From a virus (taxonomy: Duplodnaviria; Caudoviricetes), in IMG/VR virus record IMGVR_UViG_3300047539_000055: a stretch of DNA of 64,000 nt, one strand, 5' to 3'. Positions 1 through 63,869 of the stretch are shown here, piece after piece; the stretch's first letter is position 1, and the number at the start of each line of letters is the position of its first letter. Under the pieces are notes generated by a model that searched no databases, had not been told where the DNA came from, and was given only the letters and a program-made list of their open reading frames with translations. The position numbers were made by a program, and so were the translations under genes.

Positions 1-924
1 GAGGCAGGAATTCCCCTTGGAAAAGTAACCGTATTTGCTGGTCAACCAGCCAGTGGAAAGAGTTTGGTAGTAAGTGGCAATATTATTAAGCACGCGCAAG
101 ATATGGGAATCTATGTCATTCTTGTAGATACTGAAAACGCTTTGGATGAACCGTGGCTCCAGGCTTTCGGTGTTGATACAAGTGAAGACAAATTACTCAA
201 ACTAAGTTTATCCATGATCAATGATGTTGGCAAGTTATTGAGTGATTTTATCAAGAGTTATCGCGAAGATGACCCAGAAACTAGACCAAAAATATTGTTT
301 GTAATTGACAGTCTTGGAATGCTTCTATCACCGTCAGACGTAGCACAATTTGAAAAGGGCGATATGAAGGGTGATATGGGCATCAAACCCAAGCAGTTAA
401 AAGCATTAGTAAAGAATGTCCTCAATCAGTTTGCCGATCTTGATATCGGTTTAGTTGCAACTAATCATACCTATGCAAGCCAAGACCCTTACAGCCCTGA
501 TGATATCGTCAGTGGTGGTTCTGGATTCATTTTCGCGGCCTCAATCGTTGTTGCTATGAAACCATTGAAACTGAAAGAAGATGAAGACGGTGTAAAAGGT
601 ACAAAGGTTTTGGGTATTCGTTCTGGCTGTAAGATTATGAAGACTCGTTATAATCAACCGTTTACCACAACAGAAGTTGTTATACCTTATGATCAAGGTA
701 TGTTACCATATTCAGGATTGTTTGAATTATTTGAAGAACAAGGGTTACTAACCAAGGAAGGAAATAGTTATTGCTATACTGATAATGCTGGTAAGGTTCA
801 TAAAGCATTTCGTAAGAAATATCTCAAAAACGAAGACGGAATACTTGATTTGATTATGAGTGAATATAACACTGAACAAGTCAGACCAAACTTAACAAAT
901 CCTCAACTTTTAGAGGATGAATAA
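1..924 (+). CDS. uvsX: UvsX/RecA-like recombinase (5'-partial, starts before the window)
   Basis: Frame is open from base 1: GIPLGKVTVFAGQPASGKS (Walker A), VDTENALD, VIDSLG (Walker B), TNHTY, VSGGSG. Lies upstream of uvsY as in T4-like phages. Confidence 0.93.
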   Translation, partial: EAGIPLGKVTVFAGQPASGKSLVVSGNIIKHAQDMGIYVILVDTENALDEPWLQAFGVDTSEDKLLKLSLSMINDVGKLLSDFIKSYREDDPETRPKILFVIDSLGMLLSPSDVAQFEKGDMKGDMGIKPKQLKALVKNVLNQFADLDIGLVATNHTYASQDPYSPDDIVSGGSGFIFAASIVVAMKPLKLKEDEDGVKGTKVLGIRSGCKIMKTRYNQPFTTTEVVIPYDQGMLPYSGLFELFEEQGLLTKEGNSYCYTDNAGKVHKAFRKKYLKNEDGILDLIMSEYNTEQVRPNLTNPQLLEDE

Positions 925-1177
925 TATGACCCTGATGCAATTAGAATCACACATCTCAATTCCTGAAATTCATCACAAGATATTACAGAATTATACAGGA
1001 GCATATGCACTTGGGGTCACGCGCCTAAATGCTGAAAGCAACGAAGGAGCGTTTCATCTTCATGTGACTGGTGAAACTCTTGCCGAGTTTCCAGATCAAG
1101 TTGAGATTGATGGGGAGGATGTGCCTGTATTGGTTAACAGAAATTGGACTCCTCCAATTACTCAGGCTCACGATTAG
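917..1177 (+). CDS. hypothetical protein
   Basis: 86-aa ORF overlapping the uvsX end, with GAGG just upstream. Confidence 0.6.
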   Translation: MNNMTLMQLESHISIPEIHHKILQNYTGAYALGVTRLNAESNEGAFHLHVTGETLAEFPDQVEIDGEDVPVLVNRNWTPPITQAHD

Positions 1178-1820
1178 TATCCCCATAACTGAATACTGCA
1201 TAAGGATCAGTTATAACTATTGTTCCGTCTGATCGTTGCATTACATTACTTCTACCCATATCATTTAAAAAACCTTCCATGTACTTACCGACAAGTCGCA
1301 AAGCGTCCACTAATGATGGGTCATTTTTTAGATAATAAGGAACTGGAGCACCAAAGGGATATAATTCTTCTAGTGACCTAGTCGGATATTGAATTATTCT
1401 AAAGAAAGTAGATGTATCAATTCCATTATCGCGTCCGAGTGCGGATAATTTTTCAATCAAATATATGTAAAATTTTCTGCCATTGATATTCATAACTTTC
1501 ATATCGCCAATTTTTGGAAAATGAACATTGTCAAAGTCTTTAATTAAAGTAGCGTAATGTTCAAAACCCTTATCTGGTGATTTATTTATTTTTAATACAA
1601 ATGGTTTTTTATCGTTGGTAAATACTGCACTGAAATGCCCATCATTCAAATAATGCCAACCCAGTTTGCTTAATTTAGCTCGTAATTCCGTATCTTGAGT
1701 TGACATTTCTACAGGGTTTTTTGTTTTGTGAGCTATATTGCGTTGTGGGAAATAATTAAACGCAGCATCCTCAACATCTTTATCAATCATCGGAGTGTCA
1801 TCAAATTCGTATAGTCTCAT
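1158..1820 (-). CDS. T7 gp0.7-like protein kinase, paralog 1 (variant catalytic loop)
   Basis: YLNDGHFSAVF (Gly loop), FVLKI, DKGFEHY, YLIEKL, NDMGRSNVM, ITDPY. Start reassigned to MRLYEF at 1820. Confidence 0.8.
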   Translation of the reverse strand: MRLYEFDDTPMIDKDVEDAAFNYFPQRNIAHKTKNPVEMSTQDTELRAKLSKLGWHYLNDGHFSAVFTNDKKPFVLKINKSPDKGFEHYATLIKDFDNVHFPKIGDMKVMNINGRKFYIYLIEKLSALGRDNGIDTSTFFRIIQYPTRSLEELYPFGAPVPYYLKNDPSLVDALRLVGKYMEGFLNDMGRSNVMQRSDGTIVITDPYAVFSYGDTNREPE

Positions 1821-1824
1821 AATA

Positions 1825-2448
1825 TTACTCAGAATAAGGATCGGTAAGTACAATCGTTCCATCTTTGCGTTTCATAAAATTATCAGCGTGCAAATCCAAC
1901 CAGCCGTTCTCAACATTGTTTCCAATTATTCGTAAGGCTTGTACCAGCTTTGGATTTTCCGCTAAAATATCAGGTATTGGTGAATCATAGTGTTGTCTGA
2001 ATATTTCTTTCAATGATTTTTTTGGGAAATTTAGTATTGATTGAAATGAATCTCGATAATATTCTCGACGATCTTTATTTGAAATTGGATATAGTCTCTC
2101 AATGAGATAAATATAGTAATTAGTTTCACCAAATGTCAAAGTTTTAACAGCGCTAATTTTTGGAAAGTGAGGATTTGGATTACCCTGTAAAACACGGACA
2201 TATCGAGCATATCCTGTATCTTCTCTAAAGGTTAGTTTGACAACATAGTTTTTCTTTGGATTGAAGAATACGGAAGCAAATTTGCCATTGTCTAAAAACT
2301 TCCAACCAAGTTCAGCCATTTTGTGTTCAAACTTTTTATCATATGTATAATCATACGAACTATCTGAACCATATGTATTATCACGATCAGCAAGGTACTC
2401 TGATGCGTAATCACTTAGTTTCGGTTTGTTGAACTCAATAAGTTTCAT
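1825..2448 (-). CDS. T7 gp0.7-like protein kinase, paralog 2
   Basis: FLDNGKFASVF, YVVKL, EDTGYARY, LDLHADNFM, LTDPYS. Start MKLIEF at 2448. Confidence 0.85.
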   Translation of the reverse strand: MKLIEFNKPKLSDYASEYLADRDNTYGSDSSYDYTYDKKFEHKMAELGWKFLDNGKFASVFFNPKKNYVVKLTFREDTGYARYVRVLQGNPNPHFPKISAVKTLTFGETNYYIYLIERLYPISNKDRREYYRDSFQSILNFPKKSLKEIFRQHYDSPIPDILAENPKLVQALRIIGNNVENGWLDLHADNFMKRKDGTIVLTDPYSE

Positions 2449-2450
2449 TT

Positions 2451-3155
2451 TTACCAACCATCGTCATCCCAACCACCGTAATCCTGTTTTTCACTACTCT
2501 CTATAAAAGAATAAGGATCAGTAATTACAGCCGTTCCATCTTTTCGTTGCATTATATTACCAGCGTGCATATCAATTTTAAACTTTGATTTCTTAGCCCA
2601 AGATGCCACAAGCTTAATTGCTGTGACAAATTCATCATTGGAAAGTACTTTCTCAAGAATACTCTGCCAATTTGCTTGTGTATAATTAGATGGTGCCGAT
2701 ATATTCTGAATTGTAAGCGCACCAGCACCACCAATCATTGTTCTTAAAATTTTACTGTATATCTCACCCCAAGGAGCTTCCATTTCAACTAGTTTTTCAA
2801 TGAGATACATTCCGAACGTTTCACCGCCACTTTTCAAAGTTTTCAAATCACTTAAATGCGGAAAATACTTGTTTGGATGTGCCTTGATCAATTTGACATA
2901 CTCTGCATATCCAGGATCAGAAACCATTGCTAATTTTAATACATACGATTTTCTAGGATTACTAAATACATAACTAAAATTTCCGTGACCTAACCTCTGC
3001 CAACCTAACTTGCTGAGTTTGTTAATCAATTCCTCTTCATCTTCACCAAATTCTGAGTCATCAACATATGTCATACTGCCTTTTCGGAGGTAGTTTTTTG
3101 CCACTGTTTCTTCGGACTTACTAATTTTTGGCTCTCTTAATTCAAATATTTTCAT
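2451..3155 (-). CDS. T7 gp0.7-like protein kinase, paralog 3
   Basis: LGHGNFSYVF, YVLKL, DPGYAEY, IDMHAGNIM, ITDPYS. Start MKIFEL at 3155. Confidence 0.87.
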   Translation of the reverse strand: MKIFELREPKISKSEETVAKNYLRKGSMTYVDDSEFGEDEEELINKLSKLGWQRLGHGNFSYVFSNPRKSYVLKLAMVSDPGYAEYVKLIKAHPNKYFPHLSDLKTLKSGGETFGMYLIEKLVEMEAPWGEIYSKILRTMIGGAGALTIQNISAPSNYTQANWQSILEKVLSNDEFVTAIKLVASWAKKSKFKIDMHAGNIMQRKDGTAVITDPYSFIESSEKQDYGGWDDDGW

Positions 3156-3156
3156 A

Positions 3157-3807
3157 TTACTTACCCGTATGTGATAGATTGAATGTATGGAACATTGAAT
3201 ATGGATCGGTGATAACCAAATCTCCATTAGCACGTTGCATAATATTTTCATCGTGTATGTCAATGTTGAAACCGAATTTACGAGAATAAATACGAAGCCA
3301 TTTTAGAGCTTCCATCAACTCATTATTATTCCGAATAAACTCTGGAACACCGTCTGGAAATAATTCAGAAATTGGTTGAGAATAATTAGCAATAATGGTT
3401 TCTAATGCTTCAGACCAATCCCTGCTAGTCCTATAAGAAATGTGTTGCAATTTCTCAATGAGATAAACGTAAAAATTTTGCTCACCAGCTTTTAAAAGTT
3501 TCTTATCACTGATTTGTGGGTAATACTTATTTGGATGCTCATGAATCAAATTTACATATTGTTCGTACCCAGGATCGGGTTGTTTGTTTAACTTTAGAAC
3601 ATAAGATGATTTTTTACTGTTTGCAAAAACTATGCTGAATGCACCAAAACCAATTTCATACCAGCCAAGTGATCTTAGATTATCTTCTAGTATGACACGA
3701 TCATCAAAAAACCGAGATGTATTGTTAACCCAGTCAGATGTGGCTTCCTCTTCTTCTGGAGTTATGTGAGGCACGTCGAGTTCATAGTCAAATTCAAATA
3801 TTTTCAT
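3157..3807 (-). CDS. T7 gp0.7-like protein kinase, paralog 4
   Basis: IGFGAFSIVF, YVLKL, DPGYEQY, IDIHDENIM, ITDPYS. Start MKIFEF. Confidence 0.87.
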   Translation of the reverse strand: MKIFEFDYELDVPHITPEEEEATSDWVNNTSRFFDDRVILEDNLRSLGWYEIGFGAFSIVFANSKKSSYVLKLNKQPDPGYEQYVNLIHEHPNKYYPQISDKKLLKAGEQNFYVYLIEKLQHISYRTSRDWSEALETIIANYSQPISELFPDGVPEFIRNNNELMEALKWLRIYSRKFGFNIDIHDENIMQRANGDLVITDPYSMFHTFNLSHTGK

Positions 3808-4539
3808 TTAGCTTCCTGGAAAATTTGGAGGTCTGCTATTAGTATTTTTTGTAGACTTATCCTTAAAATTGAATGATTGTTGCCCGGAGCGAGAACCATA
3901 CCCATTATAAGCCATCTTTGGAAAAGAATAAGGATCAGTGATTACTAATGCTCCACTCTCTCGTTTCATAATATTACCACTATGGATGTCAATGATATAA
4001 CCATATTTACGAGAATAAACGCGAATCCATTTCAAGGCCGTTATCAACTCTTGATTATCAACAATAATATCTGGAACACCATCTGGAAATATCTCATTTA
4101 TTGGAGTATGGTATTGCCTGATTACTCTTTTTAGATCGCTACTTAGTCCATAGGGGTCTTCGTCTTCTCTATACGGTTTCAATTTTTCAATCAAATATAC
4201 ATAGTATTTGCTATCTTGAATATTTAAAAGTTTCATATCACTTATTTGAGGGAAATACTTATTTGGGTGTTTCAGAATCAAATCAACATATTTTTGATAA
4301 CCAGGGTCGGGTTGAATATTAACCTTCAGAACGTATTTTTTGGATGGATTTACTAAAACCATACTAAAAACGCCACTTCCTAATACTTTCCAACCCAGTT
4401 TTTCGAACTGTTCTTGCATCATATCCTTGTCGGCATAAAGCGCAGGGTAACCAAATTTTCCAATAGCAGTCGAAGCGGCCTTTTCCTCTTCAGGAGTGAT
4501 TGCTTGATCGCGAGGTTTGAACAACTCAAGAATCTTCAT
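3808..4539 (-). CDS. T7 gp0.7-like protein kinase, paralog 5 (first gene of the array)
   Basis: LGSGVFSMVL, YVLKV, DPGYQKY, IDIHSGNIM, ITDPYS. Start MKILEL. Confidence 0.87.
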   Translation of the reverse strand: MKILELFKPRDQAITPEEEKAASTAIGKFGYPALYADKDMMQEQFEKLGWKVLGSGVFSMVLVNPSKKYVLKVNIQPDPGYQKYVDLILKHPNKYFPQISDMKLLNIQDSKYYVYLIEKLKPYREDEDPYGLSSDLKRVIRQYHTPINEIFPDGVPDIIVDNQELITALKWIRVYSRKYGYIIDIHSGNIMKRESGALVITDPYSFPKMAYNGYGSRSGQQSFNFKDKSTKNTNSRPPNFPGS

Positions 4540-4546
4540 TATACAG

Positions 4547-4553
4547 TATTTAT
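4547..4553 (-). promoter_or_regulatory. T4-type late promoter (ATAAATA) for the kinase array
   Basis: ATAAATA 7 nt upstream of the 4539 ATG; the same motif precedes structural genes. Confidence 0.6.
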
Positions 4554-4557
4554 TCTA

Positions 4558-4586
4558 TTGACTTGTTTTGGCTGTTGATCTATAAT
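4558..4586 (+). promoter_or_regulatory. sigma70-type promoter for the uvsY operon
   Basis: TTGACT-N17-TATAAT. Confidence 0.75.
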
Positions 4587-4629
4587 GATTGTATACACCT
4601 AAATAGACGGTAATTATAAGGAAACTAAA

Positions 4630-4863
4630 ATGCAAAAAGATACACCAGAAGTTATTACTGAATGTTGGCAACTTCTCGTGGAGTATATTCCACATCGTGA
4701 TCGCGCCACCGCCGCCGAACATCTTTTCAGCTATCTTGGAAGTGTTTTAAGCAAAGAGGAACAGGAAGCAATTTCCGATCTTGACGGTGCCGATTTGTCC
4801 GACGCATATTTTGCGAATTTGGACGAAGAAAACTCAGACAAATATAGGGAAGAAGACGAATAA
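4630..4863 (+). CDS. hypothetical protein upstream of uvsY
   Basis: AAGGA SD; TAATG coupling to uvsY; acidic tail. Confidence 0.75.
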   Translation: MQKDTPEVITECWQLLVEYIPHRDRATAAEHLFSYLGSVLSKEEQEAISDLDGADLSDAYFANLDEENSDKYREEDE

Positions 4864-5315
4864 TGTGGTATAATCGCATAGTGGCATCCCTTGACGAAAT
4901 ACCTAATTTCATAGATCATTATGAACAAGAACTGGCTCTCGCTAAAAAAGAGATTTATATCAAGGGTAATGTGGAGAAGAATCTCGCAGACCTACCAGGA
5001 ATCACCGAAAACAGATTTAACCAGTTAGAAGAAGTAGAAGCAGTCCTAAACTTTCTAAATCTACGATTACGAAAGATTCGACGCAAGCATTTTCAAATAT
5101 ATTTGGAAGGATATAACAGAGTATTGACTAGCCGAGATGCCGAGAAATATGTGGATGGTGAGGAAGAGGTTGTAGAGTTTGAAATGCTTATCAATGAAGT
5201 GGCTTTATTGCGTAATAAATATCTTGGAATTATGAAAGGTTTGGAATCAAAGAACTTTATGATTGGACACGTAGTAAGGCTTAGAACAGCCGGAATGGAA
5301 GATGTAAGCTTATGA
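4863..5315 (+). CDS. uvsY: UvsY recombination mediator
   Basis: 150-aa helical protein with YLEGYNRVLTSRDAEKYVDGE and LRTAGMED, typical of UvsY of large T4-like phages. Confidence 0.85.
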   Translation: MWYNRIVASLDEIPNFIDHYEQELALAKKEIYIKGNVEKNLADLPGITENRFNQLEEVEAVLNFLNLRLRKIRRKHFQIYLEGYNRVLTSRDAEKYVDGEEEVVEFEMLINEVALLRNKYLGIMKGLESKNFMIGHVVRLRTAGMEDVSL

Positions 5316-6367
5316 TAAAACAATGTCTCTGGTCTGGTGGTTTAGATTCAACATATAATACACAAAATAGCTCTCAGAGGAAAATAATGACAATCAAAAT
5401 GAAAAGCGACGACGATTTGTTGAATGACGCATTAGATAAAGAATCAAGCGGTGCTGACAGTGCGAATCGTGGTCAAACCGCAAAATCTCGCGATCCGTGG
5501 GATGATGAAGAAGAGTCTGGAAGTGAAGGAAGTTTTGAATTCAAACAATGGCAAGTTGGTGCCAATGATATATTTAGACCAGCGGGAACCACTCGTCAGT
5601 CTATTCCTTCAGGAGTTTTTGAATTTGATCGTGACGATAGCGGTTTATATGCCAAGAAAATCAATGTAATTACAGATTCATTGGTTGAACTTCCTGACAA
5701 TGCCAGTGAAAGAGTTGTTAAAGGAATGAAGAAATTTTGGAGTATGGAAGCTCGTTATAGAGAGCATGGACTGTTATACAAAAGAGGAATACTTTTATGG
5801 GGGCCGCCAGGATCGGGCAAAACTGTCACAATTAGTTTGCTTAATAAATACCTCATTGAAAATGGTGGAATTGTTGTAATGTGTAGCCATCCTAAACTTA
5901 CATCAATGGGTTTAGAAGCAATCAGGCGTATTGAACCAACTCGTCGCATCATCTGTATTATGGAAGATATTGACGAAATCATTGAGAAGTATGGCGAACA
6001 CGATTTGCTATCGCTTTTAGACGGTGAAAATCAAGTGGAAAATATTGTCATGTTGGCAACTACCAACTATCCAGACCGTCTTGGTGCGCGTATTGTCAAT
6101 CGTCCTTCTCGTTTTGATGAAAGAATTTTGGTTGATATGCCAGGTTCATCAGCACGTAGAGTGTATCTTAAGAATATCATTGGTGAATGTCCAGAGTTAA
6201 CCAAATGGGTTGATGAAACCGATGGTTTGAGTGTGGCTCATCTTCGTGAATTAACCGCTGCTGTTCGCTGTTTGGATCAGGATTATGATGAGGTTTTGAA
6301 TCGTCTCAAGAAGATGAAGCAGAAGGTCAAGAGTATTGAAGGGAACGAAACAAAGGTGGGATTCTGA
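5312..6367 (+). CDS. AAA+ ATPase (true start probably ~5388-5400)
   Basis: GILLWGPPGSGKT (Walker A), IMEDID (Walker B), ATTNYP, NRPSRFD, C-terminal VGF. Confidence 0.88.
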   Translation: MIKQCLWSGGLDSTYNTQNSSQRKIMTIKMKSDDDLLNDALDKESSGADSANRGQTAKSRDPWDDEEESGSEGSFEFKQWQVGANDIFRPAGTTRQSIPSGVFEFDRDDSGLYAKKINVITDSLVELPDNASERVVKGMKKFWSMEARYREHGLLYKRGILLWGPPGSGKTVTISLLNKYLIENGGIVVMCSHPKLTSMGLEAIRRIEPTRRIICIMEDIDEIIEKYGEHDLLSLLDGENQVENIVMLATTNYPDRLGARIVNRPSRFDERILVDMPGSSARRVYLKNIIGECPELTKWVDETDGLSVAHLRELTAAVRCLDQDYDEVLNRLKKMKQKVKSIEGNETKVGF

Positions 6368-6850
6368 TGAATGAATTTAATAAAGCCTTTTGGAAACGAT
6401 TTGCCAAAGCAAGGATAGGATGGACTGAGAAATTACAGCCATTAGTTGATGCTTCTCTTGTTTGCGAAAAATTAATAATGAAAGACGTTGAATTTAAACC
6501 AATTATTACAAAGGAATTATTAATTCCTTTGTCAAAGGAATTATGATAACTAAAGTAGTAGATTTTGCCAATAGATTTAATGATAAATTCTGGTCAATCG
6601 CGGGGCCAATAATTCTAATGGTTATGACAATATGGTTCTGTTGTTTAATGTTTTATATAACATATAGCATTTTTGAATGGACAGCGCATATTATGAAAGG
6701 ATAATTATGAAAACAATTGATACAGAAGAAAGCGTTAACATTGATTTTGACAAGGAAGAACAAGAACTTGTTGAACTCTCAATGAATGATATTACAATGG
6801 AAGACCAAACGTATTTTGATTCAGAAGATAATGGTAATCAACCATCATAG

Positions 6851-7249: not shown

Positions 7250-7285
7250 AGAGGGTATTTGTTTGCTGGTGGGATAAATACTACT

Positions 7286-7540
7286 ATGAAATCGCAAACA
7301 AAGTCACTATTGGAAAGTCTTGTGGATTTGCACCCTTCTCAAGATACTTCCCTTATTATTGAGTCTCGCGGATCACATATCATAGCCTCTGCAATCGCAC
7401 TATTAGAAACAATTGAAGAAGAATACGGCCAACAATTAGCAGAAAACCTCGAAAAAAGACTACTCAGTAGTATCCGCAATAAAAACAATGGAAAATTTAC
7501 AAGGGCCACAAAAGCTCTTGGAAAACTAACAAAGAATTAG
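7286..7540 (+). CDS. phage hypothetical protein
   Basis: MKSQTKSLLESL...IESRGSHII; preceded by ATAAATA-N5-ATG. Confidence 0.7.
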   Translation: MKSQTKSLLESLVDLHPSQDTSLIIESRGSHIIASAIALLETIEEEYGQQLAENLEKRLLSSIRNKNNGKFTRATKALGKLTKN

Positions 7541-8027: not shown

Positions 8028-8717
8028 TTAAGAATAAGGATCGGTTATGACTAGTGTTCCGTTGGCTCTTTGCATCATGTTGTTTTGATGCAAATCCATA
8101 TACTTACTTCCTTGATCATTAGCGATAATGTTCAATGCCAAGACTAAATCTGGATTCTGTTTAAAAATTAGTGGGATTTTTCCATTAAAATATAAAACCA
8201 AAGACTCAATATCCGGTGTGTTAGCGGCACGAAATTGACTTGCCATCGCTGTATCAAATATTTTTTCATATCGTTGTGCGCGTGCCAGTGGGATTTCTTC
8301 TAACTTTTCAATTAGATAAACGCAGTAATTATTCTTGCCTATTTTCATTACCTTCATATCACTGATTTTAGGAAAGAATTTATTTGGATTCTTTTTAATA
8401 ATCGTTGCATATCGTTCATAGCCTTTATCTTCTCGCTTGTTAACCTTCAGAACAAATGATTTTTTGGGGTTGCCATAGATAGAACTAAACACACCCCAAC
8501 CAATTTTTTCCCATCCCATTTTTTCAAGATTGCTTGTCAATGTGTCATCAACATCAGCAATTGCATTCATACGAGCTTCAATATCATTTGTGCTTAAACT
8601 ATTGGGTAATTTAGATGACAATGATTTATTATATGGATGACGCTGTCTGAAGTAATCAAACGCAGTATTGGTTACACGCTTTCCAATCTTTGGTCGGGTT
8701 AATTCATTGATATTCAT
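8028..8717 (-). CDS. T7 gp0.7-like protein kinase, paralog 6
   Basis: IGWGVFSSIY, FVLKV, EDKGYERY, YLIEKL, MDLHQNNMM, ITDPYS. Start MNINEL. Confidence 0.87.
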   Translation of the reverse strand: MNINELTRPKIGKRVTNTAFDYFRQRHPYNKSLSSKLPNSLSTNDIEARMNAIADVDDTLTSNLEKMGWEKIGWGVFSSIYGNPKKSFVLKVNKREDKGYERYATIIKKNPNKFFPKISDMKVMKIGKNNYCVYLIEKLEEIPLARAQRYEKIFDTAMASQFRAANTPDIESLVLYFNGKIPLIFKQNPDLVLALNIIANDQGSKYMDLHQNNMMQRANGTLVITDPYS

Positions 8718-8725
8718 ATCATTTC

Positions 8726-9154
8726 CTAAGAATAAGGATCAATAATAACTATTGTTCCATCTTCTCTCTGCATTATATTAAATCTTCATAAGCACCCATA
8801 ATACTGCCATTAATTTGCCCGCTATTCCCCATGGAATCTTATATAATTTTTCAATCAGATAAACATAATAATTATTCCCATTAAAGCGTAATTTTTTCAT
8901 ATCGCTAATGATTGGAAAATGTTTGTTTGGGTGTCTATGTATGAGTCTGACATATGCCTCATAACCTATATCTGGATCATTTAGTTTTTTCAAAATATAT
9001 GGTTTACTTTTATTTCCATAAACAGAAGCAAACGATCCAAAATCCAATTCAATCCATCCAAGTTTTTCCATATGTTCTTCAAACGCGACTCTACTCAACT
9101 CTCCTTTGAATGAAGAAAATGCCAATTTTTGATTGGTTCTGTAATTTTTGGCAT
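8726..9154 (-). pseudogene. decayed kinase paralog 7 (frameshift plus internal deletion)
   Basis: ATG coupled to the gp15 stop gives MPKITEPIK; after a 1-nt shift it reads LDFGSFASVY...YILK...YLIEKL. It then jumps out of frame to NIMQREDGTIVIIDPYS*, and the DxH catalytic segment is absent. Confidence 0.75.
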
Positions 9155-10578
9155 TATATTATTAGCCTCCAAGAACCGGCATCATATGGCCCTTCATAAC
9201 CTCTCACCCAAACATTGCCATTCCATTGACATTGAAGATTTATAGCATTGTCATAAACAAACGATATATTTCCAATATTATTTTCGGCTGAGAATGTTGT
9301 CACCCAACTGTTTCCAGTATAGGTAATAATATCATTCACATTTGCCGTAGCCGAACTGTTTCCAGAATCGTAAGGCCAAGCCGATCCAATAGACGAAGTA
9401 ATTAAATATGAATCACCGATATTAGCATTGGATAACCCGTATCCTGGCGCTACTTGTTCTGGATTGACAATTGAAATAATAGCTGGCAGTGTATTTGCCG
9501 GCAGTGTTGCGACATTTGCATTGTATAGAAGAATAGTAGGATCGGTTGGATCAACAGTAATTGTTCCAAGGATTTCATTGACACTGTAATCATAAGACAA
9601 TCCAATCTGAGAAACACCCGGTCTAACATTTCCATAGGTTCCAAGCACGGCGGTCCAATCCAATGGACTTCCAAAAAAGAAAGGAGAAGCTGTTAAATTA
9701 GCTGAAAGATTGGCAGAGCTTAGAGTATTTGAAGCGTCCCAAAAAGCAATGGGATTATCGGTATGAGTCACATTCGCAGTTGGCCCTTGTTGTAAGATTC
9801 TGATTTGACCATTGGTTACAAGTAAACCATAATTGTTAAATGTAACAACTTGGCGAGTATTCAACACCAAATCATTCAAATCATTTGTGGCATTGATATC
9901 CATAATAACTTTGAAAATGACACCCATCTTGCTAACTTGTGCAGGAAGAGACATCCATATTGGTGCTTCAAATTGCAGGGTGCATACATCATAGGAACTA
10001 TCACTATTTTGACCAATTGGAATTGATCTATTAGTCCAAGTTACATCCATCAATTCCAAATAACTAAGACTTTCCCAATCCAAATAGTTATCTGTCTTTT
10101 GAATTTCTAATGCTGGATTAAACAAAGGAAGAATTTGCTCAAGAATTTGTGTTTTTTGCTGTGTATTTGATGTAACAATATCAACCTTGATTTCCAATTT
10201 GTAAGGAACTGGCATGAATCGTTTAACAGTATAAGCATTGGCTTGCGCAGGTAAATATGCGCCGACATTCGCATCGTATTGGCGAGTTCTAACAGATAAG
10301 GTATCTTGAAATGTTGGGGTTTGAGTTCTGGGACGATCAAATTTCAAATTTGAGATATAGATACTAAACATTGGAAACGATGCCATCACGTTTTCTGAGT
10401 TCAATCTTAAAATTGTGGCGGCGGAAAATGTGCTATCTCCATAAATTGCAGGAACAGTGCTGTATGCTTGACTGCCATCGGAATTCAAACCATAAGTGAC
10501 AGTAAAACCAGAAAATAAACGAACGATCTGATACATCCACTTACGGAGATTTTCATCGTAAAAATATTGACTTCCCAT
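9154..10578 (-). CDS. gp15: tail sheath stabilizer/terminator gp15-like, with C-terminal extension
   Basis: QYFYDENLRK, MPVPYKLEIKVDI, QILEQILPLFNP are gp15-family motifs. Confidence 0.85.
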   Translation of the reverse strand: MGSQYFYDENLRKWMYQIVRLFSGFTVTYGLNSDGSQAYSTVPAIYGDSTFSAATILRLNSENVMASFPMFSIYISNLKFDRPRTQTPTFQDTLSVRTRQYDANVGAYLPAQANAYTVKRFMPVPYKLEIKVDIVTSNTQQKTQILEQILPLFNPALEIQKTDNYLDWESLSYLELMDVTWTNRSIPIGQNSDSSYDVCTLQFEAPIWMSLPAQVSKMGVIFKVIMDINATNDLNDLVLNTRQVVTFNNYGLLVTNGQIRILQQGPTANVTHTDNPIAFWDASNTLSSANLSANLTASPFFFGSPLDWTAVLGTYGNVRPGVSQIGLSYDYSVNEILGTITVDPTDPTILLYNANVATLPANTLPAIISIVNPEQVAPGYGLSNANIGDSYLITSSIGSAWPYDSGNSSATANVNDIITYTGNSWVTTFSAENNIGNISFVYDNAINLQCQWNGNVWVRGYEGPYDAGSWRLII

Positions 10579-10622: not shown

Positions 10623-10699
10623 ATAAATAGATATGTAGTTCGCGGTGATCAGACCCAACTACTCTAAGGCTTTTAGGAGCATCAGCTATGAATATTTAT
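10623..10699 (+). ncRNA. putative structured cis-regulatory leader of an endonuclease gene (copy A)
   Basis: ATAAATA, then stems GTAGTT/AACTAC, GGT/ACC and GCT/AGC, then ATCAGCT-ATG. A second copy at 63858-63937 shows compensatory changes. Confidence 0.6.
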
Positions 10700-11488
10700 T
10701 CAACTAAATTTTTCCAAGACAATAGATTCTATGTCTATATGTATCTGCGCGAAAAAGACTCAATATATGGCTTAGCAGGAACTCCTTACTATATTGGTAA
10801 GGGAATTGGTAATAGAGCATTTGCTCCACATCATAAAGGAATATCTGTACCAAAAGATAAAAACAGAATTCAATTTATTTGCGAAAACATAAAAGAAATA
10901 GATGCTTTTAATTTAGAAATATATCTTATTTGTTTATATGGTCGTATAGATTTGAAAACTGGATGTCTTCACAATATGACAAATGGCGGCGATGGTAGTT
11001 CTGGCCATATTAAGTCTCAGGAAACAAGACAAAAACTTTCAAAAGCCTTAAAAGGAAAACCATTATCAGAAATTTCAAAATATCATAAATCATTAGCAGC
11101 AAAAGGCAGAAAACTTACCAATAAACAAAAAGCCAGCTTGTTAAAGGCAAATATTGGCTCCAAGCGTACTGACGCGCACAAATTGGCAATAAGTAAATCA
11201 CTCCAAGGAAGAAAATTCTCAACACAACATAAAGAAAATTTAAGATTATCTCAACTGGGAAAGAAAGCATCTGTAGAAAGTAAAAAGAAAATGTCCGATG
11301 CTAAGATTGGTAAACCTGGACATTTACATACTGCTAAAAGTAAGCTACAAATTAGTCTAAAATTACGAGGAAAGAAACGAAAATTATATGAATGTAACGT
11401 GTGCCATAAACAAATTGGCGGAATAACAAATTTAAATCGTCATTTATTCAAACATTCTAATATAATTGACTACTACTTGTGCTCATAA
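10688..11488 (+). CDS. free-standing GIY-YIG-like homing endonuclease with NUMOD3 repeats
   Basis: FYVYMYLR...PYYIGKG, LHNMTNGGDG, basic helical repeats, C-terminal CxxC-H zinc finger. Inserted antisense between gp15 and terminase. Confidence 0.85.
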   Translation: MNIYSTKFFQDNRFYVYMYLREKDSIYGLAGTPYYIGKGIGNRAFAPHHKGISVPKDKNRIQFICENIKEIDAFNLEIYLICLYGRIDLKTGCLHNMTNGGDGSSGHIKSQETRQKLSKALKGKPLSEISKYHKSLAAKGRKLTNKQKASLLKANIGSKRTDAHKLAISKSLQGRKFSTQHKENLRLSQLGKKASVESKKKMSDAKIGKPGHLHTAKSKLQISLKLRGKKRKLYECNVCHKQIGGITNLNRHLFKHSNIIDYYLCS

Positions 11489-21249: not shown

Positions 21250-22398
21250 TTATGCTCCGAGGACTTCTGGAGGTTGACCACTGGTACCATAACCATCTAC
21301 CACGGTTGGAACTGCCATTTGTAATGTGTTTCCACCAGTCAATGCTAATCCAACAGCTTGTGCAGTGGCAATGCTTTGAGTTAGAACTGTAGCTGTTGTG
21401 GCCTGACCAGTATTGACGCCCTTTTGAACCAATTGATTAGCAAGTTCAAATGAATTGGCAAGCACAGAACCAAGTTGATTATTGCCCCCTGGAGTTGTAT
21501 CGGTTAATGGACTTGGTTCTGTATCAAAGAATCGTTGTAATACAGCATCCCAACTTGCAATTTCATTATCGTTAACAATACCAGCATTATACAAAACAGT
21601 TTCATATTCGATACTCATTTTATTTTGCATAAATTCAGAATTTGCTAAATCAACAGTATCGTGTGCAAATGAAGTAATAACCGGATTTACCAATACATAT
21701 TCACTATATTGTGGCCCCACATTTGGATCAGTTGTACGATTGAATTGATAGATACGAATGCTGCGAAAAAATGGATTGGTGCGATTTAGTGGAGAACCAA
21801 GCGCATTAACGGTGTCCAAACCATAATTCACACCCCAATTAGTTGAAGTGCTATATAAAGTTTCAACATCACTAGTGCTTGGTGACCATTGATTTGGAAT
21901 GGAAATGCCTTGTAATTGTGTAGCTTGAAAATTCACATATCGAGGGTCTTGAATCATATATTGATAATAAGCATACCAAAATCCACGAATAGCATCAACA
22001 GTATCATCCCAAAAAGTGAGTTCAATTGGATCATAATTAATTTTTGTTGTGATTAAACTTGGACGATTGTATTGATTTTTCGTTTCAACTTTAAATTTGA
22101 AATCTGGTAACTTTGCTGTTCGTGCCAATATACCCAAAATTGGCAAATTACTAGGAAGCCAGTTAATACTCAAATTTGATACTGCGGAACCTAACGCGGC
22201 GGTTACTGCGGTAACAGCGGCCGGATCCATTTCAAAGAAAATATGAAACCAATTTTTGCTTTTTGGTAGAAAGCTGGAATTATTTGGTCGAAAAATCTTA
22301 GAAGCGTGTTGATAATCACGTAAAGTCGTAAAATGGTTATTCGACTGACGCTGTAAAGCGTTGAATCCTGTCGCGAGTATTGAACTTAGAGTTCCCAT
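21250..22398 (-). CDS. tail-tube-fold baseplate protein (gp54/gp48-like)
   Basis: NQYNR...INYDPIELTFWDD, LVNPVITSFAHD, MSIEYE resemble tube-family motifs. Confidence 0.7.
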   Translation of the reverse strand: MGTLSSILATGFNALQRQSNNHFTTLRDYQHASKIFRPNNSSFLPKSKNWFHIFFEMDPAAVTAVTAALGSAVSNLSINWLPSNLPILGILARTAKLPDFKFKVETKNQYNRPSLITTKINYDPIELTFWDDTVDAIRGFWYAYYQYMIQDPRYVNFQATQLQGISIPNQWSPSTSDVETLYSTSTNWGVNYGLDTVNALGSPLNRTNPFFRSIRIYQFNRTTDPNVGPQYSEYVLVNPVITSFAHDTVDLANSEFMQNKMSIEYETVLYNAGIVNDNEIASWDAVLQRFFDTEPSPLTDTTPGGNNQLGSVLANSFELANQLVQKGVNTGQATTATVLTQSIATAQAVGLALTGGNTLQMAVPTVVDGYGTSGQPPEVLGA

Positions 22399-22416
22399 AG
22401 TTATATTTATACAAAT

Positions 22417-24363: not shown

Positions 24364-25374
24364 TTATACTTTTTTCAAATTTTCTAAAATCATACTTTTA
24401 ATCTTAAATGAGTTTTCTAACCAGTCATCTTCCCAAAAGGAAAGCAACTTGATATCATTATTAAGACACATTTGATATTTGTATTTATCCTTTTTCCAAA
24501 TTTCTGAAACCGCTATTTTCCCACGGTTTGAGCGAACCATATCAGTTGGTTTATACAATTTTGGATTTCCATGCCAGTAATTTCCTTGAATCTCAATGGC
24601 CACTTTATATTCTGGTAAATAGAAATCTAATTCCTTTGGCTTTATTTGTTTCATATCATTTTGCTTAAATTCTATATTATTTTCTTTTAACCAATTTGCT
24701 AATTCAACCTCATAACAAGAACGAACTCTTGAAATGATATTCAATCCTAACTTACGATGATAAACAACAATTGTACTTTTACTAACATTTAATTTATCAG
24801 CCATTTTTCGAGTTCCTAAATTTAATAACATTTCAGAAAATTTTTCTTTATTGTTTAATGTTTCACGAGCAAGTTCAGTAAAATGTACTTGTTTTTCGTG
24901 TATAACACCATAATCAGAGATACAATTTTGTTGTCGAGTATTAATTTGTTTTTTCATTATATCTTTATTACCATTAGCACTTATCGAACCATATCGCATT
25001 AAACAAGTTTGTTTTGTTTGTTCTTGAATGGTTGATAATCCTTGTATTCCTAGAACTCCATACTTATTCAACATTGTCTTATTTCTATTGTCAATAGTAC
25101 ACTGACATGATACTTTACAATTGAATTGAGAACCCTTTCTACTTTTTTTGAATTTTTGTTTTAATCCGTATGGACAAATTAACTTAAATCCATTGTGTAA
25201 TAACAACCAAACTTTTGCTGACAGCGATTCTGTTTCGTTAGGATAATTCTTTTCAAATTTAACTTTAATAAATGAAACTAATTCTCTGTCTCGTTTAATC
25301 GCGTCAATTGCTCTATAATGGCCAATTTCTTGAATTCTTAATACTTCGGCAATAGCAGTTTCTTCTGTATACAT
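24364..25374 (-). CDS. free-standing endonuclease (Vsr/DUF559-like PD-(D/E)xK C-terminus)
   Basis: KYGV repeats, HTH-like segment, ELDFYLPEYKVAIEIQGNYWH, FWEDDW. Inserted between sheath and tube genes. Confidence 0.8.
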   Translation of the reverse strand: MYTEETAIAEVLRIQEIGHYRAIDAIKRDRELVSFIKVKFEKNYPNETESLSAKVWLLLHNGFKLICPYGLKQKFKKSRKGSQFNCKVSCQCTIDNRNKTMLNKYGVLGIQGLSTIQEQTKQTCLMRYGSISANGNKDIMKKQINTRQQNCISDYGVIHEKQVHFTELARETLNNKEKFSEMLLNLGTRKMADKLNVSKSTIVVYHRKLGLNIISRVRSCYEVELANWLKENNIEFKQNDMKQIKPKELDFYLPEYKVAIEIQGNYWHGNPKLYKPTDMVRSNRGKIAVSEIWKKDKYKYQMCLNNDIKLLSFWEDDWLENSFKIKSMILENLKKV

Positions 25375-30356: not shown

Positions 30357-31307
30357 TTATTTCTTTTTACGATTTCGCAAAATTCCCATACCTAACATAA
30401 AACCAAGATCAATACAAAATTGAAGTTCTTCTTTATTAATATATTTTATCATTTGACCATTGTTAATACATATTTTGCCAATATGTGCCAATGAATTTTT
30501 ATATTTACTCTCCTCCGATGATATAATTCCTGTTTTAGCTAACCCCATTTTTTTGCGAGTTTCTTCAGAACGAGTAATACCAGTCAGGGTGTCTGATATC
30601 TTCTTTTTAATTTCTTCCTTCATTGGCCCTAATCCTTTACCTTTACGACCTTTTGATAAATTTTTTCGTGCTTCTACTGATACTATTTTACCCATATTTT
30701 TATCGGCAATTTTTTGTTTCGTCACAGCATCCATTGGAAATCTACCCTGTTTATATCCCCTCACAATATATGATTCTAATGAATATTTTTCGATTCGTTT
30801 TTGTTCTAAACCATTATTAACCCATATTCTATTCTTAAATCTATTTGATTGATCTTTTTTAGACTGTTCACTTTGAGATAATCCTCTTTTTATAAATCCT
30901 TTGGATTCATATTCTGGCCAGTCTTGTAAAGATATCTTTTTTTGAATTTTATCTTTGATAACCGATATTTTCCCTGTAATACCAACCGTTGAAAAATTTT
31001 TGCCACCGTTATGTTGATTATACCAATTTGGATTATTAGCTGCGTTCATTCGTAAAAGAAATTTATTTTCGTGTTCTCGACAAGCTTCAGTAGAATTGAA
31101 AATTCGTGCCACTCTAAATTCAAAAATATTGACACCCTCAGTTTTTATCAAATGTTTAATAATTTTACTTCCTGAAAAATAAGAAGTCCAAAGATGTTCT
31201 GGTTTACATCCTTTAGATGTTTTACACCCATAATATTTCATTTTGGTTATCTTATGTCTAAGAAAATAAGTAAATGGTGTTCTATCTCCCGCTAAAAATG
31301 ACGACAT
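30357..31307 (-). CDS. Seg-like (GIY-YIG variant) homing endonuclease with NUMOD3 repeats
   Basis: TPFTYFL..KYYG, YFSGSK, WYNQHNG, IWVNNG and SEETRKKM repeats. Inserted between gp13 and gp14. Confidence 0.8.
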   Translation of the reverse strand: MSSFLAGDRTPFTYFLRHKITKMKYYGCKTSKGCKPEHLWTSYFSGSKIIKHLIKTEGVNIFEFRVARIFNSTEACREHENKFLLRMNAANNPNWYNQHNGGKNFSTVGITGKISVIKDKIQKKISLQDWPEYESKGFIKRGLSQSEQSKKDQSNRFKNRIWVNNGLEQKRIEKYSLESYIVRGYKQGRFPMDAVTKQKIADKNMGKIVSVEARKNLSKGRKGKGLGPMKEEIKKKISDTLTGITRSEETRKKMGLAKTGIISSEESKYKNSLAHIGKICINNGQMIKYINKEELQFCIDLGFMLGMGILRNRKKK

Positions 31308-31412
31308 ATAAATTTCTCCCATTAGTATATACCTATTTATCTTATTAGGTGGTAAAATTTGTGACTATTACAAAATATTTTAATACCACTAAATATGATA
31401 GAGGCAACGAAA

Positions 31413-33152: not shown

Positions 33153-33407
33153 TTAGTTTTCTAATCTCCATAAAACATATTCTTCTTGAGTTATAACACG
33201 ATACATTGACCAAGTTATCATTGGCCAAGGCCAAGTGGTATTACTAGAAGCGTTCCTACAAAAAGTAGGTTCGTGTTCGTTTTCGTTTTGTTCCCACGAT
33301 AACAAGCCAACAGAAATATTGCCTTCTAAACTACGAAAAAGAAGTGGCTGGCCGTTTGGCAATTTTTTAATACTGCTGTTTGTAATTCTCTTTCCTTGAA
33401 ATTTCAT
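33153..33407 (-). CDS. LWxLEN-tail small protein, type B
   Basis: MKFQGK...EEYVLWRLEN. Confidence 0.7.
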   Translation of the reverse strand: MKFQGKRITNSSIKKLPNGQPLLFRSLEGNISVGLLSWEQNENEHEPTFCRNASSNTTWPWPMITWSMYRVITQEEYVLWRLEN

Positions 33408-33643
33408 CAGTTCTCCAACTTCCACAACATGGCTTGTTCATCGCTCATAACTTGAATTTCTTGCGAATCGTATTGTCGTTGTCTTCCATAATTATATGTA
33501 TCCTTATAACTTATTACTTGAATCTGCCTTTGCGGAGAATCACGAAAAATATAGGTAACAACTGAAACATACGGTACGCAACCTTCCACAAATATTGTTA
33601 CGGGCGCACCGATATAAATTTCTTTTCCGTTTCTGTCTGTCAT
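33407..33643 (-). CDS. LWxLEN-tail small protein, type A (KOW/SH3-like)
   Basis: MTDRNGKEIYIGAPV...SDEQAMLWKLEN. Confidence 0.7.
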   Translation of the reverse strand: MTDRNGKEIYIGAPVTIFVEGCVPYVSVVTYIFRDSPQRQIQVISYKDTYNYGRQRQYDSQEIQVMSDEQAMLWKLEN

Positions 33644-33876
33644 TAGTTTTCCAACTTCCAAAGGACATATTCTTTTTTAGATACAATGCGATAAGAATGC
33701 CAAGTCATCATTTCCCAATTTCTTTTATCTTCTAATTTAAAAATTGGCCAATTTTCACCAACCCAATGTAATGAACCGACAAATATTTTACCTGCCGATC
33801 CTTTAAAATAAAGTAACTGACCTTCACGAAGAGTTTTGACACGATCCTCAGTTAGTGGTTTACCTCTAAATTTCAT
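33643..33876 (-). CDS. LWxLEN-tail small protein, type B
   Basis: MKFRGK...KEYVLWKLEN. Confidence 0.7.
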   Translation of the reverse strand: MKFRGKPLTEDRVKTLREGQLLYFKGSAGKIFVGSLHWVGENWPIFKLEDKRNWEMMTWHSYRIVSKKEYVLWKLEN

Positions 33877-34154
33877 TATGCGTTCTCCAGCATCCACAAC
33901 ATTGCTACTTCATCACTTACTTTTTGAACATCTTGAAGTTTACGGACGATTACAAATGGGCCTCCGCTTGAGGGCACTGAAATTGATACAACTTTAATAT
34001 TATTCCACCTTGTTTCATTTTTTAAAATTTTACCCATTCCACTTTGTAAACCAAGGGGTTTGTAACGAACTACATCATCAGCCCTTATCTCAAGCCAACC
34101 CACAATTTTAACAACATCACCGATTTCTAATTGCGTTCCATTCCTGTCTGTCAT
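33876..34154 (-). CDS. LWxLEN-tail small protein, type A (KOW/SH3-like)
   Basis: MTDRNGTQLEIGDVV...SDEVAMLWMLENA. Confidence 0.7.
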   Translation of the reverse strand: MTDRNGTQLEIGDVVKIVGWLEIRADDVVRYKPLGLQSGMGKILKNETRWNNIKVVSISVPSSGGPFVIVRKLQDVQKVSDEVAMLWMLENA

Positions 34155-49264: not shown

Positions 49265-49885
49265 TTAATTCCTTAACTTATTTTGTGCTTGTCTTCGCGC
49301 CTCTGTCCAAGGAATTCCTTTTCTAGCACGACTCATATTTTCTAATGTTTTTAGTGATGCTTTTTTACCTTTGTTATTACTAGGTTTACCAAGTTTAGCT
49401 AAAGAACATTTTAATTTTTGTTCTTCGGACATAGCAACGCCTCTATTATGAGCAGGTTTTCCAAAATTTGGATTGTTTTCTCCCGAATTTGCTTTTGATA
49501 TCTTTTTGCCTACTTCGGGATTTCTTTTAATACCTAATCCGTATGTATTACCCATTGCTGTCAAACTCATTTTTTGTTTGGATTCTTCACTATATGTTTT
49601 GTTGAAGCCACCCCTTTTTAGGTTATATCCATTTGGAAACATTGTATTGTTTTCCACAATATATTGGTCTTCTAATAAATTTAATTGTTCAATGTTGTCG
49701 GTTTCTGCTAAAATTTCAACATTAAAATTTTCTTCTCCATATTTTCGAATAGCATTATGTAAAGCAAAACCAGATTTTTTATTCCTTCTTGCCAAAGATA
49801 GATGAACATTCCATCTTGTTGTTATTGGATTAATAGTTTGTCCAATATAGCATTTATTGTTCACCAAATTTTTAATTAGATACAC
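49265..49885 (-). CDS. GIY-YIG homing endonuclease with NUMOD3 repeats
   Basis: YLIKNLVNNKCYIGQT, AIRKYG, GYNL..GG, SEESKQKMS, GENNPNFGK. Confidence 0.88.
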   Translation of the reverse strand: MYLIKNLVNNKCYIGQTINPITTRWNVHLSLARRNKKSGFALHNAIRKYGEENFNVEILAETDNIEQLNLLEDQYIVENNTMFPNGYNLKRGGFNKTYSEESKQKMSLTAMGNTYGLGIKRNPEVGKKISKANSGENNPNFGKPAHNRGVAMSEEQKLKCSLAKLGKPSNNKGKKASLKTLENMSRARKGIPWTEARRQAQNKLRN

Positions 49886-63244: not shown

Positions 63245-63869
63245 TTACAAAATTTTCTTTTTAAATTCTGTTTTTGGAGAATAATGATGACCTTTGTTGG
63301 ATTTTGAAATTTTATCTTTTGTTTCTTGAGATAATTTTTTACCAATTTTTGGATTATTTTGAAATCTAAATTTTTGAGCGTCGGACATTTTCTTTTTAAC
63401 TTCATCTGATCTACGGCCATGACCACCTTTATTTCCCAATGCATTTTGATTACCTTTTTTAGATTCGGCCATTTTTTGTCTAGTAATCTCTGACATATTT
63501 TGTCTTGTTATTGACATTTGTTTTCGAGATTCATCCGAATGTTTATATCCACTCACACCGTCACCGCCACTAGTTCTATTACGAAGGTTTCCAGTTTTTA
63601 TGTCAATACGACCATATAGATGAATAAGTAATATCTCAAGTTGAAGGGCATCTGCTTCATTCATATTTTTTAGATAAAATTTGGATTTGGTTTTTATCTT
63701 TTGGAACTGCGATTCCTTTTGGATGTTGTTTTTCAAATGCACGACGATTTTTTCCTTTACCAATATAATAAGGAGTTCCAATATCTCCATATTTTGATTT
63801 CTTAAAACGTAGATATTGATACACATAAAAAATTTTTTCTTGAGAAAATATGGCAGAATAAATATTCAT
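63245..63869 (-). pseudogene. GIY-YIG-like/NUMOD3 endonuclease, paralog of 10688-11488, with a 1-nt frameshift
   Basis: MNIYS...FYVYQYLR...PYYIGKG in one frame and NMNEADAL...YGRID...NRTSGGDG in another. Removing one A from the A6 run near 63670 restores the ORF, so this may be a sequencing error. Confidence 0.75.

Follow-up and report, generated by a model that had tools for sequence, protein, structure and literature searches.

A 64,000-nucleotide (nt) stretch of DNA from a virus (Duplodnaviria; Caudoviricetes; IMG/VR record IMGVR_UViG_3300047539_000055), referred to below as the window, raises the question of what an uncultured phage may gain from five kinase genes of one type lying head to tail between uvsX and uvsY, and at which stage of infection they are used. 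An initial annotation, made from the letters alone, described the products as T7 gp0.7-like protein kinases that would be synthesized late, packaged in the capsid and injected into the next host. The analysis presented here identified, at the level of sequence, in uncultured jumbo phages of one clade, a real, conserved and expanding family of T7 gp0.7 (T7K)-type kinases that are predicted to be catalytically intact and late-controlled. That the array encodes active T7K-type kinases under late control is regarded as very probable, and packaging in the capsid followed by injection as a possibility somewhat short of an even chance.

T7K phosphorylates host proteins broadly and disarms bacterial defence systems (PMC13645617, Nature 2026). 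Its anti-defence action is broad and promiscuous and falls within the first minutes of infection, and in the window this type of enzyme is multiplied, diversified, apparently late and carries a putative N-terminal tag. Multiplied and diversified kinases argue for division of labour or specificity over promiscuity.

The kinase domain and its paralogs

All five array proteins (K1 to K5, numbered by order of transcription) were matched by PHROG 15752, the T7 gp0.7-type kinase group, with E-values of ~1e-12 to 1e-16. A profile of 130 family members aligned by hhalign to T7 gp0.7 with 97.6% probability (E 2.6e-12). The alignment spanned the Gly loop, the lysine, FDMHSGNIM and ITDPVSF, with LGxGxFS and V-L-K72 of the window proteins facing LGNGHFS and VIKV of T7K, and it ended at residue 217 of the 359 residues of T7K, ahead of the C-terminal shut-off (SO) domain. 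The window proteins themselves stop 1-37 residues past the DPY-S motif and hence lack this domain. The Pfam family PF27024 (Phage_T7_kinase) was recorded, weakly, on relatives; the Pfam scan of the five array proteins returned sub-threshold noise only, and a profile search of the sequences of solved structures returned only designed helical proteins (E ~0.1). In a library clustered at 50% identity the family comprised 4423 representatives at E < 1e-3, 164 of them at E < 1e-30.

The array paralogs are 33-50% identical to K1. Their alignment is invariant at G49, G56, F58, K72 (in VLK), D78-x-G, LIE118-x-L, D184, N189, R193 and T-D202-P-Y, and ten residues (G49, K72, D78, E118, L120, D184, N189, R193, D202 and P203) are invariant in the 130 family members as well. 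All ten are kept in the six intact kinase copies of the window, i.e. K1 to K5, with K5 included, and K6 from a second locus described below. The catalytic-loop His is present in K1-K4 and K6 and is replaced by Gly in K5. The T-D202-P203-Y-S sequence is likewise found in K1-K4 and K6, with Ala in place of Ser after DPY in K5. In T7K the Ser following DP(V/Y), S216, is the site of inhibitory autophosphorylation (PMC13645617). Since the ATP lysine, the catalytic Asp/Asn loop and the 'DFG-like' Asp of DP(Y) are kept, all six intact copies should be active kinases.

An AlphaFold2 (AF2) model of K1 built from a deep alignment (predicted local distance difference test, pLDDT, 86) showed a bilobal kinase topology and kept a small helical C-lobe (helices 132-179). 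Foldseek against BFVD gave T7-like phage kinases as the best viral structure matches (E 1e-10 to 1e-11). Among solved structures, eukaryotic-like protein kinases filled the top ranks (Foldseek E ~5e-5, template modelling (TM) score ~0.3), and in the VIA structure search (best Z 7.8) the first 31 matches were protein kinases or pseudokinases; one APH(2'') (aminoglycoside kinase) chain stood at rank 32 with Z 6.3. The best PDB matches, at middling scores, were thus protein kinases and not APH or choline kinases. The agreement of PHROG 15752, hhalign and the viral Foldseek matches, together with the stop of the T7K alignment at residue 217, supports the initial assignment of these proteins as predicted minimal protein kinases of the T7K type without the SO domain.

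The mean pairwise identity among the six intact copies is distributed unevenly along the protein. It amounts to 56% in the first six residues, 20% in the N-terminal helical extension (7-44), 50% in the N-lobe, 20% in the C-lobe helical segment (121-180) and 57% from the catalytic loop to DPY-S. As the initial annotation had it, the differences are centred on the N-terminal and C-lobe helices, and the core is more uniform (50-57%). The paralogs have unrelated C-terminal tails, and K4 and K6 are essentially tailless. K1 ends with 37 basic, low-complexity residues rich in Ser, Gly and Asn (window 3808-3921; pI of K1 9.1), and the tail of K3 (window 2451-2507) is acidic and contains GW twice (…GGWDDDGW). 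Across the paralogs, pI values lie between 5.1 and 9.5. Such a pattern would fit a constant catalytic core combined with differing substrates or partners. In T7K it is the C-terminal DNA-binding domain that directs substrate preference. As a separate observation, the paralog-specific tails of K1 and K3 may be targeting peptides.

The five open reading frames (ORFs) encode proteins of 207-243 aa and are separated by stop-to-ATG gaps of 0, 1, 2 and 4 nt from K1 to K5. Both uvsX and uvsY lie on the plus strand, with the array antisense between them. The anatomy given in the initial annotation was correct in every detail, from the five paralogs with gaps of 0-4 nt and their position to the motif set (Gly loop, VLK, D-x-G-Y, D-x-H-x-x-N and TDPY) and the variant catalytic loop of the 1158-1820 copy. 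The coordinates are collected in Table 1.

A profile of the five array copies, run over all six frames of the window, revealed a second kinase locus directly downstream of a gp15-like tail gene and in the same orientation. It consists of K6 and, just upstream of it, a decayed copy, giving six intact kinases and one decayed in the window. The C-lobe and catalytic loop of the decayed copy are deleted, and an out-of-frame remnant at 8779-8727 encodes NIMQREDGTIVIIDPYS.

Table 1. Positions of the kinase genes, promoter elements and other features in the window
Feature	Position	Strand	Remarks
uvsX	1-924	+	RecA-like recombinase; 5' end cut by the window
K5	1158-1820	-	220 aa; altered catalytic loop D-M-G-R-S-N
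K4	1825-2448	-	207 aa; deep-branching paralog
K3	2451-3155	-	234 aa; acidic GW-rich tail; orthologue of L003_3679
K2	3157-3807	-	216 aa; recent duplicate of K1
K1	3808-4539	-	243 aa; first gene of the array; PHROG 15752, E 7e-15
ATAAATA late-type promoter element	4547-4553	-	7 nt before the K1 ATG
Sigma70-like promoter TTGACT-17-TATAAT	4558-4586	+	near-perfect; divergent, faces orf77-uvsY
orf77 and uvsY	4630-5315	+	orf77 has 77 codons; both conserved on the far side of the array in all related loci
uvsY	4863-5315	+	PHROG 231
AAA ATPase gene	5312-6367		351 aa; after uvsY
Virion structural protein gene	7286-7540	+	ATAAATA at 7274-7280
K6	8028-8717	-	229 aa; sixth intact kinase; hidden Markov model E 6e-60
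Decayed seventh kinase copy	8727-9125	-	N-lobe ORF at 8778-9125
gp15-like gene	9154-10578	-	tail sheath stabiliser or tail-sheath-family gene; PHROG 11196, E 4e-75; PHROG 227, E 9e-22
Homing-endonuclease-like gene	10688-11488	+	
Tail tube gene	21250-22398	-	upstream element at 22404-22411
Homing-endonuclease-like gene	24364-25374	-	
Homing-endonuclease-like gene	30357-31322	-	
Four small ORFs	33153-34154	-	77-92 aa each; tightly packed
Homing-endonuclease-like gene	49265-49885	-	
Homing-endonuclease-like gene	63245-63826	-	

The promoter ahead of the array

The K1 start codon is preceded by an ATAAATA element, and no Shine-Dalgarno (SD) sequence was found upstream of this gene. In the window 11 gene starts have a sense-oriented ATAAATA in the 60 nt before them and 2 an antisense one, in comparison to 2.4 +/- 1.6 occurrences in shuffles matched for composition (maximum 8 in 2000). 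It precedes 9/42 genes of the minus strand versus 1/33 of the plus strand, and among the genes concerned are those for the tail tube, the tail sheath and a head-tail adaptor, one for a virion structural protein and several for homing endonucleases. The array itself lies on this structural-gene strand, antisense to the neighbouring replication genes. Two of the structural genes are arranged alike, the tail tube gene with TATAAATA and the virion structural protein gene with ATAAATA, each followed by 5 nt and the ATG, and each without an SD sequence. In both, the motif is so near the ATG that the late mRNA would have no leader. K1 is laid out in this way too, and late mRNAs of this phage may generally be leaderless.

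In the related loci of uncultured phages (L003, L004 with two sites, L006/L007 and L011) an (A/T/C)TAAATA element stands 5-7 nt before the first kinase ATG, and the intergenic DNA around it has diverged. The unrelated gene for a five-kinase polyprotein in L015 starts with the arrangement CTAAATA-N7-ATG. This conserved footprint constitutes the strongest evidence for late control that the sequences offer. An ATAAATA consensus has been reported before the structural genes of phages CBB and GAP32 and likened to the T4 late promoter in the CBB paper, where a gp55-like factor is also noted. T7-like early kinase genes have SD leaders and no TAAATA-type motif.

The 90-nt intergenic spacer shared by the array and orf77 contains no sigma70-like site toward the array; the early-type signal in it points only toward orf77-uvsY. 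A sigma70 extended -10 reading of TGTATAAT, which overlaps the K1 start, was considered and rejected: its TG is one base out of register, it would place the transcript start within the ORF, and L003, L004b and L011 do not conserve the hexamer. On the opposite side of the spacer (4558-4629), a CTAAATA ~25 nt before the orf77 ATG on the plus strand is conserved in L003 and L007, and uvsY may thus have both early and late promoters.

The enrichment in the window, the footprint in the relatives and the CBB literature agree with the initial annotation that a late-type ATAAATA, and not a sigma70 promoter, precedes the array, and the placement of the second kinase locus right behind a tail gene points the same way. 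These sequence comparisons give good support to late transcription into an mRNA whose leader is absent or two bases long. The five genes would then form one operon read from a T4-type (gp55-like) late promoter. Since ATAAATA lies so close to the first ATG, the mRNA would be leaderless or nearly so for K1, and the downstream genes would be translated by coupling.

Kinase loci in related phages

The window UvsX shows ~60% identity to its RecA-like counterparts in Vibrio phage 2.275.O and CBB and 53% to UvsX of Salmonella phage Munch, and on sequence the window comes from a phage distantly related to the Rak2/CBB/GAP32 group of T4-like jumbo phages. A megablast of window positions 1-6400 against the phage collection gave no match. 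In the cultured CBB, Vibrio phage 2.275.O and Munch uvsY follows uvsX directly, and searches of CBB and Vibrio phage 2.275.O with the array profile and PHROG 15752 detected no family member.

The uncultured L003 (UvsX 81% identical) has seven tandem kinases antisense between uvsX and orf77-uvsY. L006/L007, L011 and L004 have two kinases each at this locus, and in L006/L007 a further two are placed behind gp15, which repeats the gp15-kinase gene order of the window. Metagenome contigs of 1.4-3 kb were also found packed end to end with 2-4 kinase copies. Overall, related uncultured jumbo phages carry 2-7 kinases at the uvsX-uvsY locus. Tandem arrays are thus the norm in the subfamily, and each of the two loci is a conserved site of insertion at which the number of copies varies.

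In a maximum-likelihood tree the window paralogs were interleaved with those of other phages. K3 formed a clade with L003_3679 (support 100/99, 58% identity), K6 grouped with the copy common to L006 and L007 (L006_412/L007_4676; support 96/95), K1 and K2 made up a recent pair (99/96), and K4 and K5 branched deep in the tree. Because of this interleaving, several paralog lineages must predate the divergence of these phages and have been retained, with duplication (K1/K2) and loss (the decayed copy) ongoing. The tree thus points to birth-and-death evolution of a maintained multigene family, not to a recent amplification. Paralogs and orthologues are at most 58% identical and their synonymous sites are saturated.

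The kinase domain of the window family is homologous to that of T7 gp0.7, and the Gly loop, VxK lysine, D-x-H-x-x-N, DP(V/Y) and the following Ser are shared. However, gp0.7 is a single early SD-led gene with a DNA-binding shut-off domain, whereas the window family has 5-7 copies per locus, is SO-less and has a late-type, near-leaderless start, and its N-terminal motif and helical extension were left unaligned to T7K by hhalign. SO-less T7K homologues have been reported as single copies in the jumbo phages Munch and Escherichia phage G17 (PMC13645617). The Munch kinase, from the same broad phage group, is a stand-alone protein of ~213 aa and SO-less like the window kinases, but it is present in one copy, is 25% identical to K1, starts with MTKQEIF and is one of a long series of small genes that have SD sites, with no array and outside the uvsX-uvsY and tail-operon loci.

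Kinase domains of phage polyvalent proteins were predicted to be packaged and injected, with T7K as precedent, by Iyer et al. 2017 (PMC5512222). Polyvalent proteins carry several effector domains per polypeptide, as do the relatives P0032, P0084, P0129 and P0085 of the window family described below, unlike the window genes. The polyvalent kinase clade is defined by the loss of the whole C-terminal subdomain and by signature residues (PMC5512222). Compared by description, the modelled window kinase keeps a small helical C-lobe, and the family invariants have no obvious match among these residues.

The nearest cultured example of tandem copies found is Rhizobium phage RHph_I1_18 (171 kb; L033:41-1866), in which the adjacent EVB91_001 (C-terminal half) and EVB91_002 carry family domains (E 1e-19 and 4e-23). 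It has two copies only, with neither M-x-[IL]-x-E-[LF] nor TAAATA directly upstream, and in a different context. RHph_I1_18 might lend itself to experiments on tandem phage kinases. No description of tandem arrays, late control, packaging or an N-terminal tag for T7-type kinases was found in the literature searched. Within that literature, the claim that the arrangement had not been described held for the arrays and their late control; it needs qualifying with regard to SO-less jumbo-phage homologues (2026) and the prediction of packaged kinase domains (2017), both of which are in print.

The N-terminal motif, possible modes of action and further features of the window

All six intact copies start with M-x-[I/L]-x-E-[L/F], as do the great majority of 128 family representatives sharing <50% mutual identity, and [I/L]-x-E at residues 3-5 is found in no other of the 75 window genes. 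The T4 prohead protease gp21 cleaves behind L/I-x-E. The N-terminal propeptides removed from T4 virion proteins are 7-65 residues long, and a targeting sequence of ten N-terminal residues brings diverse proteins into the head (PMC9026906). The kinase motif fits the gp21 site. A gp21-type prohead protease (Peptidase_S77) is encoded by CBB, Munch and Vibrio phage 2.275.O. The T4 proteins Alt and IPI-III are late-made, diversified and host-directed or anti-defence, and share only a short N-terminal peptide cut by gp21; the window kinases resemble them in having a late-type promoter and, at residues 3-5, [I/L]-x-E. The T4 effectors are, however, an ADP-ribosyltransferase or an inhibitor, whereas the window encodes kinases with a putative propeptide of only 5 residues.

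Several relatives carry the kinase domains in one polypeptide. P0032 consists of five kinase domains and reads through under translation table 11, and P0084 and P0129 are similar polyproteins. The L015 polyprotein (L015:193-3258, on a 56-kb contig) has 1021 aa with five kinase domains in one frame, and a Gad2 (anti-Gabija) gene lies ~3 kb away. The motif ([I/L]-N-E-L-x-G-Y-K...) stands before every domain in P0032, P0084 and P0129, and between the modules of such polyproteins it is 57-68% conserved versus 33-41% for the kinase bodies. P0085 (L018:3254-8563; 1769 aa, table 11, from a public run) combines three kinase domains with Acb1, an anti-CBASS domain, at its C-terminus (Pfam PF23474, E 3e-23). 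It has L-x-E-L at its own start, at residue 158, within an N-terminal part that is not a kinase, and ahead of each kinase. When the regions outside the kinase domains of the fused relatives, and motif-sharing non-kinase proteins, were scanned with PHROG and Pfam, Acb1 was the only informative match. The window array lacks the polyprotein form, being composed of separate ORFs with stop codons. The gene after P0085 (531 aa) was seen to start with MKLVELF.

The motif, the polyproteins and the tail-operon locus strengthen the idea of virion delivery; this support is circumstantial and suggests such delivery without proving it. As proposed, the kinases would be made late, loaded into the prohead, clipped and injected with the DNA, and would act at the start of the next infection. 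The prohead is the likeliest route because the proteins would be late-made and their start fits the gp21 site L/I-x-E. Once in the cell, they would phosphorylate host proteins, defence systems included, with the N-terminal extension, C-lobe helices and C-terminal tails choosing substrates or partners, and each paralog covering different targets. An anti-defence role is somewhat more probable than not; T7K disarms defences, three such kinases are fused to Acb1 in P0085, and a Gad2 gene lies near the L015 polyprotein. The whole chain of events including packaging is offered tentatively, at slightly worse than even chances. Extended to the entire T7K-type subfamily with its thousands of members in uncultured phages, the suggestion that these are virion-delivered effectors is a shade more speculative still. 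Under this wider suggestion the kinases would be made from a leaderless late promoter, M-x-[I/L]-x-E would be a five-residue signal for prohead addressing and cleavage, and the arrays or protease-separable polyproteins, some of them fused to other anti-defence enzymes such as Acb1, would provide a pre-made, diversified set that disarms defences before phage gene expression.

Several points weigh against this proposal. No prohead protease gene was found by tblastn in the window or in the relatives' fragments examined. No T4 propeptide is as short as five residues, [I/L]-x-E as a motif is poor in information, and in the loci examined it is almost confined to kinases, so that its portability to other cargo is barely shown. 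In the deep-alignment AF2 model residues 1-10 have a pLDDT of 65 with a helical turn at 3-5, and the motif may be a structural part of the kinase. The early, unpackaged kinases of T7, KP32 and W2B have an acidic and then a hydrophobic residue at positions 5-6, which hints at an ancestral N-terminal helix. The similarity to solved kinases is only middling, and the substrate class consequently rests on family membership. Finally, the single Munch kinase lies inside an early-looking run of small genes.

Some of these points would be expected if the late kinases acted inside the producing cell, unpackaged, with the motif as a structural element of the fold. Their targets might then be abortive-infection sensors that respond to capsid, portal or terminase proteins, or phage or host proteins regulated ahead of lysis. 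Late structural proteins are what many defence sensors recognise. The late-promoter evidence fits an intracellular role equally well, and the moderately ordered N-terminus, the similar start of unpackaged T7-like kinases and the near restriction of the motif to kinases speak for it. However, a promiscuous T7K-type kinase present late would also hit the phage's own assembly proteins, and T7 shuts its kinase off before the late genes (PMC13645617). Moreover, the motif precedes non-kinase modules in P0085 and is more conserved than the kinase bodies in the polyproteins. Packaging is also the fate of host-modifying enzymes that T4-like phages are known to make late, such as Alt and the internal proteins. 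On balance, an exclusively intracellular late role is considered less likely than packaging, but a serious alternative.

Dual or early/middle expression from a promoter type unrecognised by the scan, with T7K-like action, is a poorer candidate and quite improbable. It would be compatible with a host whose promoter consensus differs from that scanned, with the non-canonical middle promoter of CBB-type phages and with the position of the Munch kinase in an early-looking cluster; T4 genes, too, often have several promoters. The spacer nevertheless offers no sigma70-like site toward the array and a near-perfect one facing the other way, the fixed-spacing (A/T/C)TAAATA is the only kinase-side element conserved across five diverged loci, and the array is placed on the structural-gene strand, antisense to its replication-gene neighbours. 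That the proteins are not protein kinases at all, and represent APH/choline-kinase-like phosphotransferases or decaying pseudokinase duplicates, is highly improbable, for although an APH(2'') chain is among the structure matches, all Z-scores are below 8, one copy has decayed and the K5 loop is altered, all top Foldseek matches and the first 31 VIA matches are protein kinases or pseudokinases, T7K is an experimentally proven protein kinase with homologous sequence, the ten invariant residues are kept in six copies, and paralog lineages were maintained across phage divergence.

If virion delivery of the kinases, which is the favoured proposal, were true, they would be the first injected protein kinases in phages, provided with a new, very short capsid-targeting signal. 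Phosphorylation would join ADP-ribosylation (Alt) as a pre-loaded chemistry of host takeover, and the tag might provide a means of loading cargo into large phage heads. Should the kinases be unpackaged, they would represent an unexplored late-phase use of phosphorylation, e.g. against sensors of structural proteins. Either way, the paralogs are a natural set in which substrate choice by minimal kinases can be studied.

Several minor features of the window and its relatives were noted. The AAA ATPase gene after uvsY corresponds to a single 677-aa ORF in L006/L007 (L007:6618-8651, minus strand), in which the two halves of the window ATPase align ~1 kb apart; this looks like an in-frame insertion and is an intein candidate. 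The uvsX gene of L011 (6270-8640, minus strand) aligns in two pieces, residues 3-174 and 169-290, ~1.5 kb apart; an intron or an inserted homing endonuclease probably splits the gene. Genes resembling homing endonucleases (GIY-YIG, HNH or NUMOD3) number at least five in the window, and the late ATAAATA precedes at least two of them (30357-31322 and 49265-49885). The 3' ends of the four small ORFs encode a shared C-terminal ending of the (A/V)(M)LW(K/M)LEN type.

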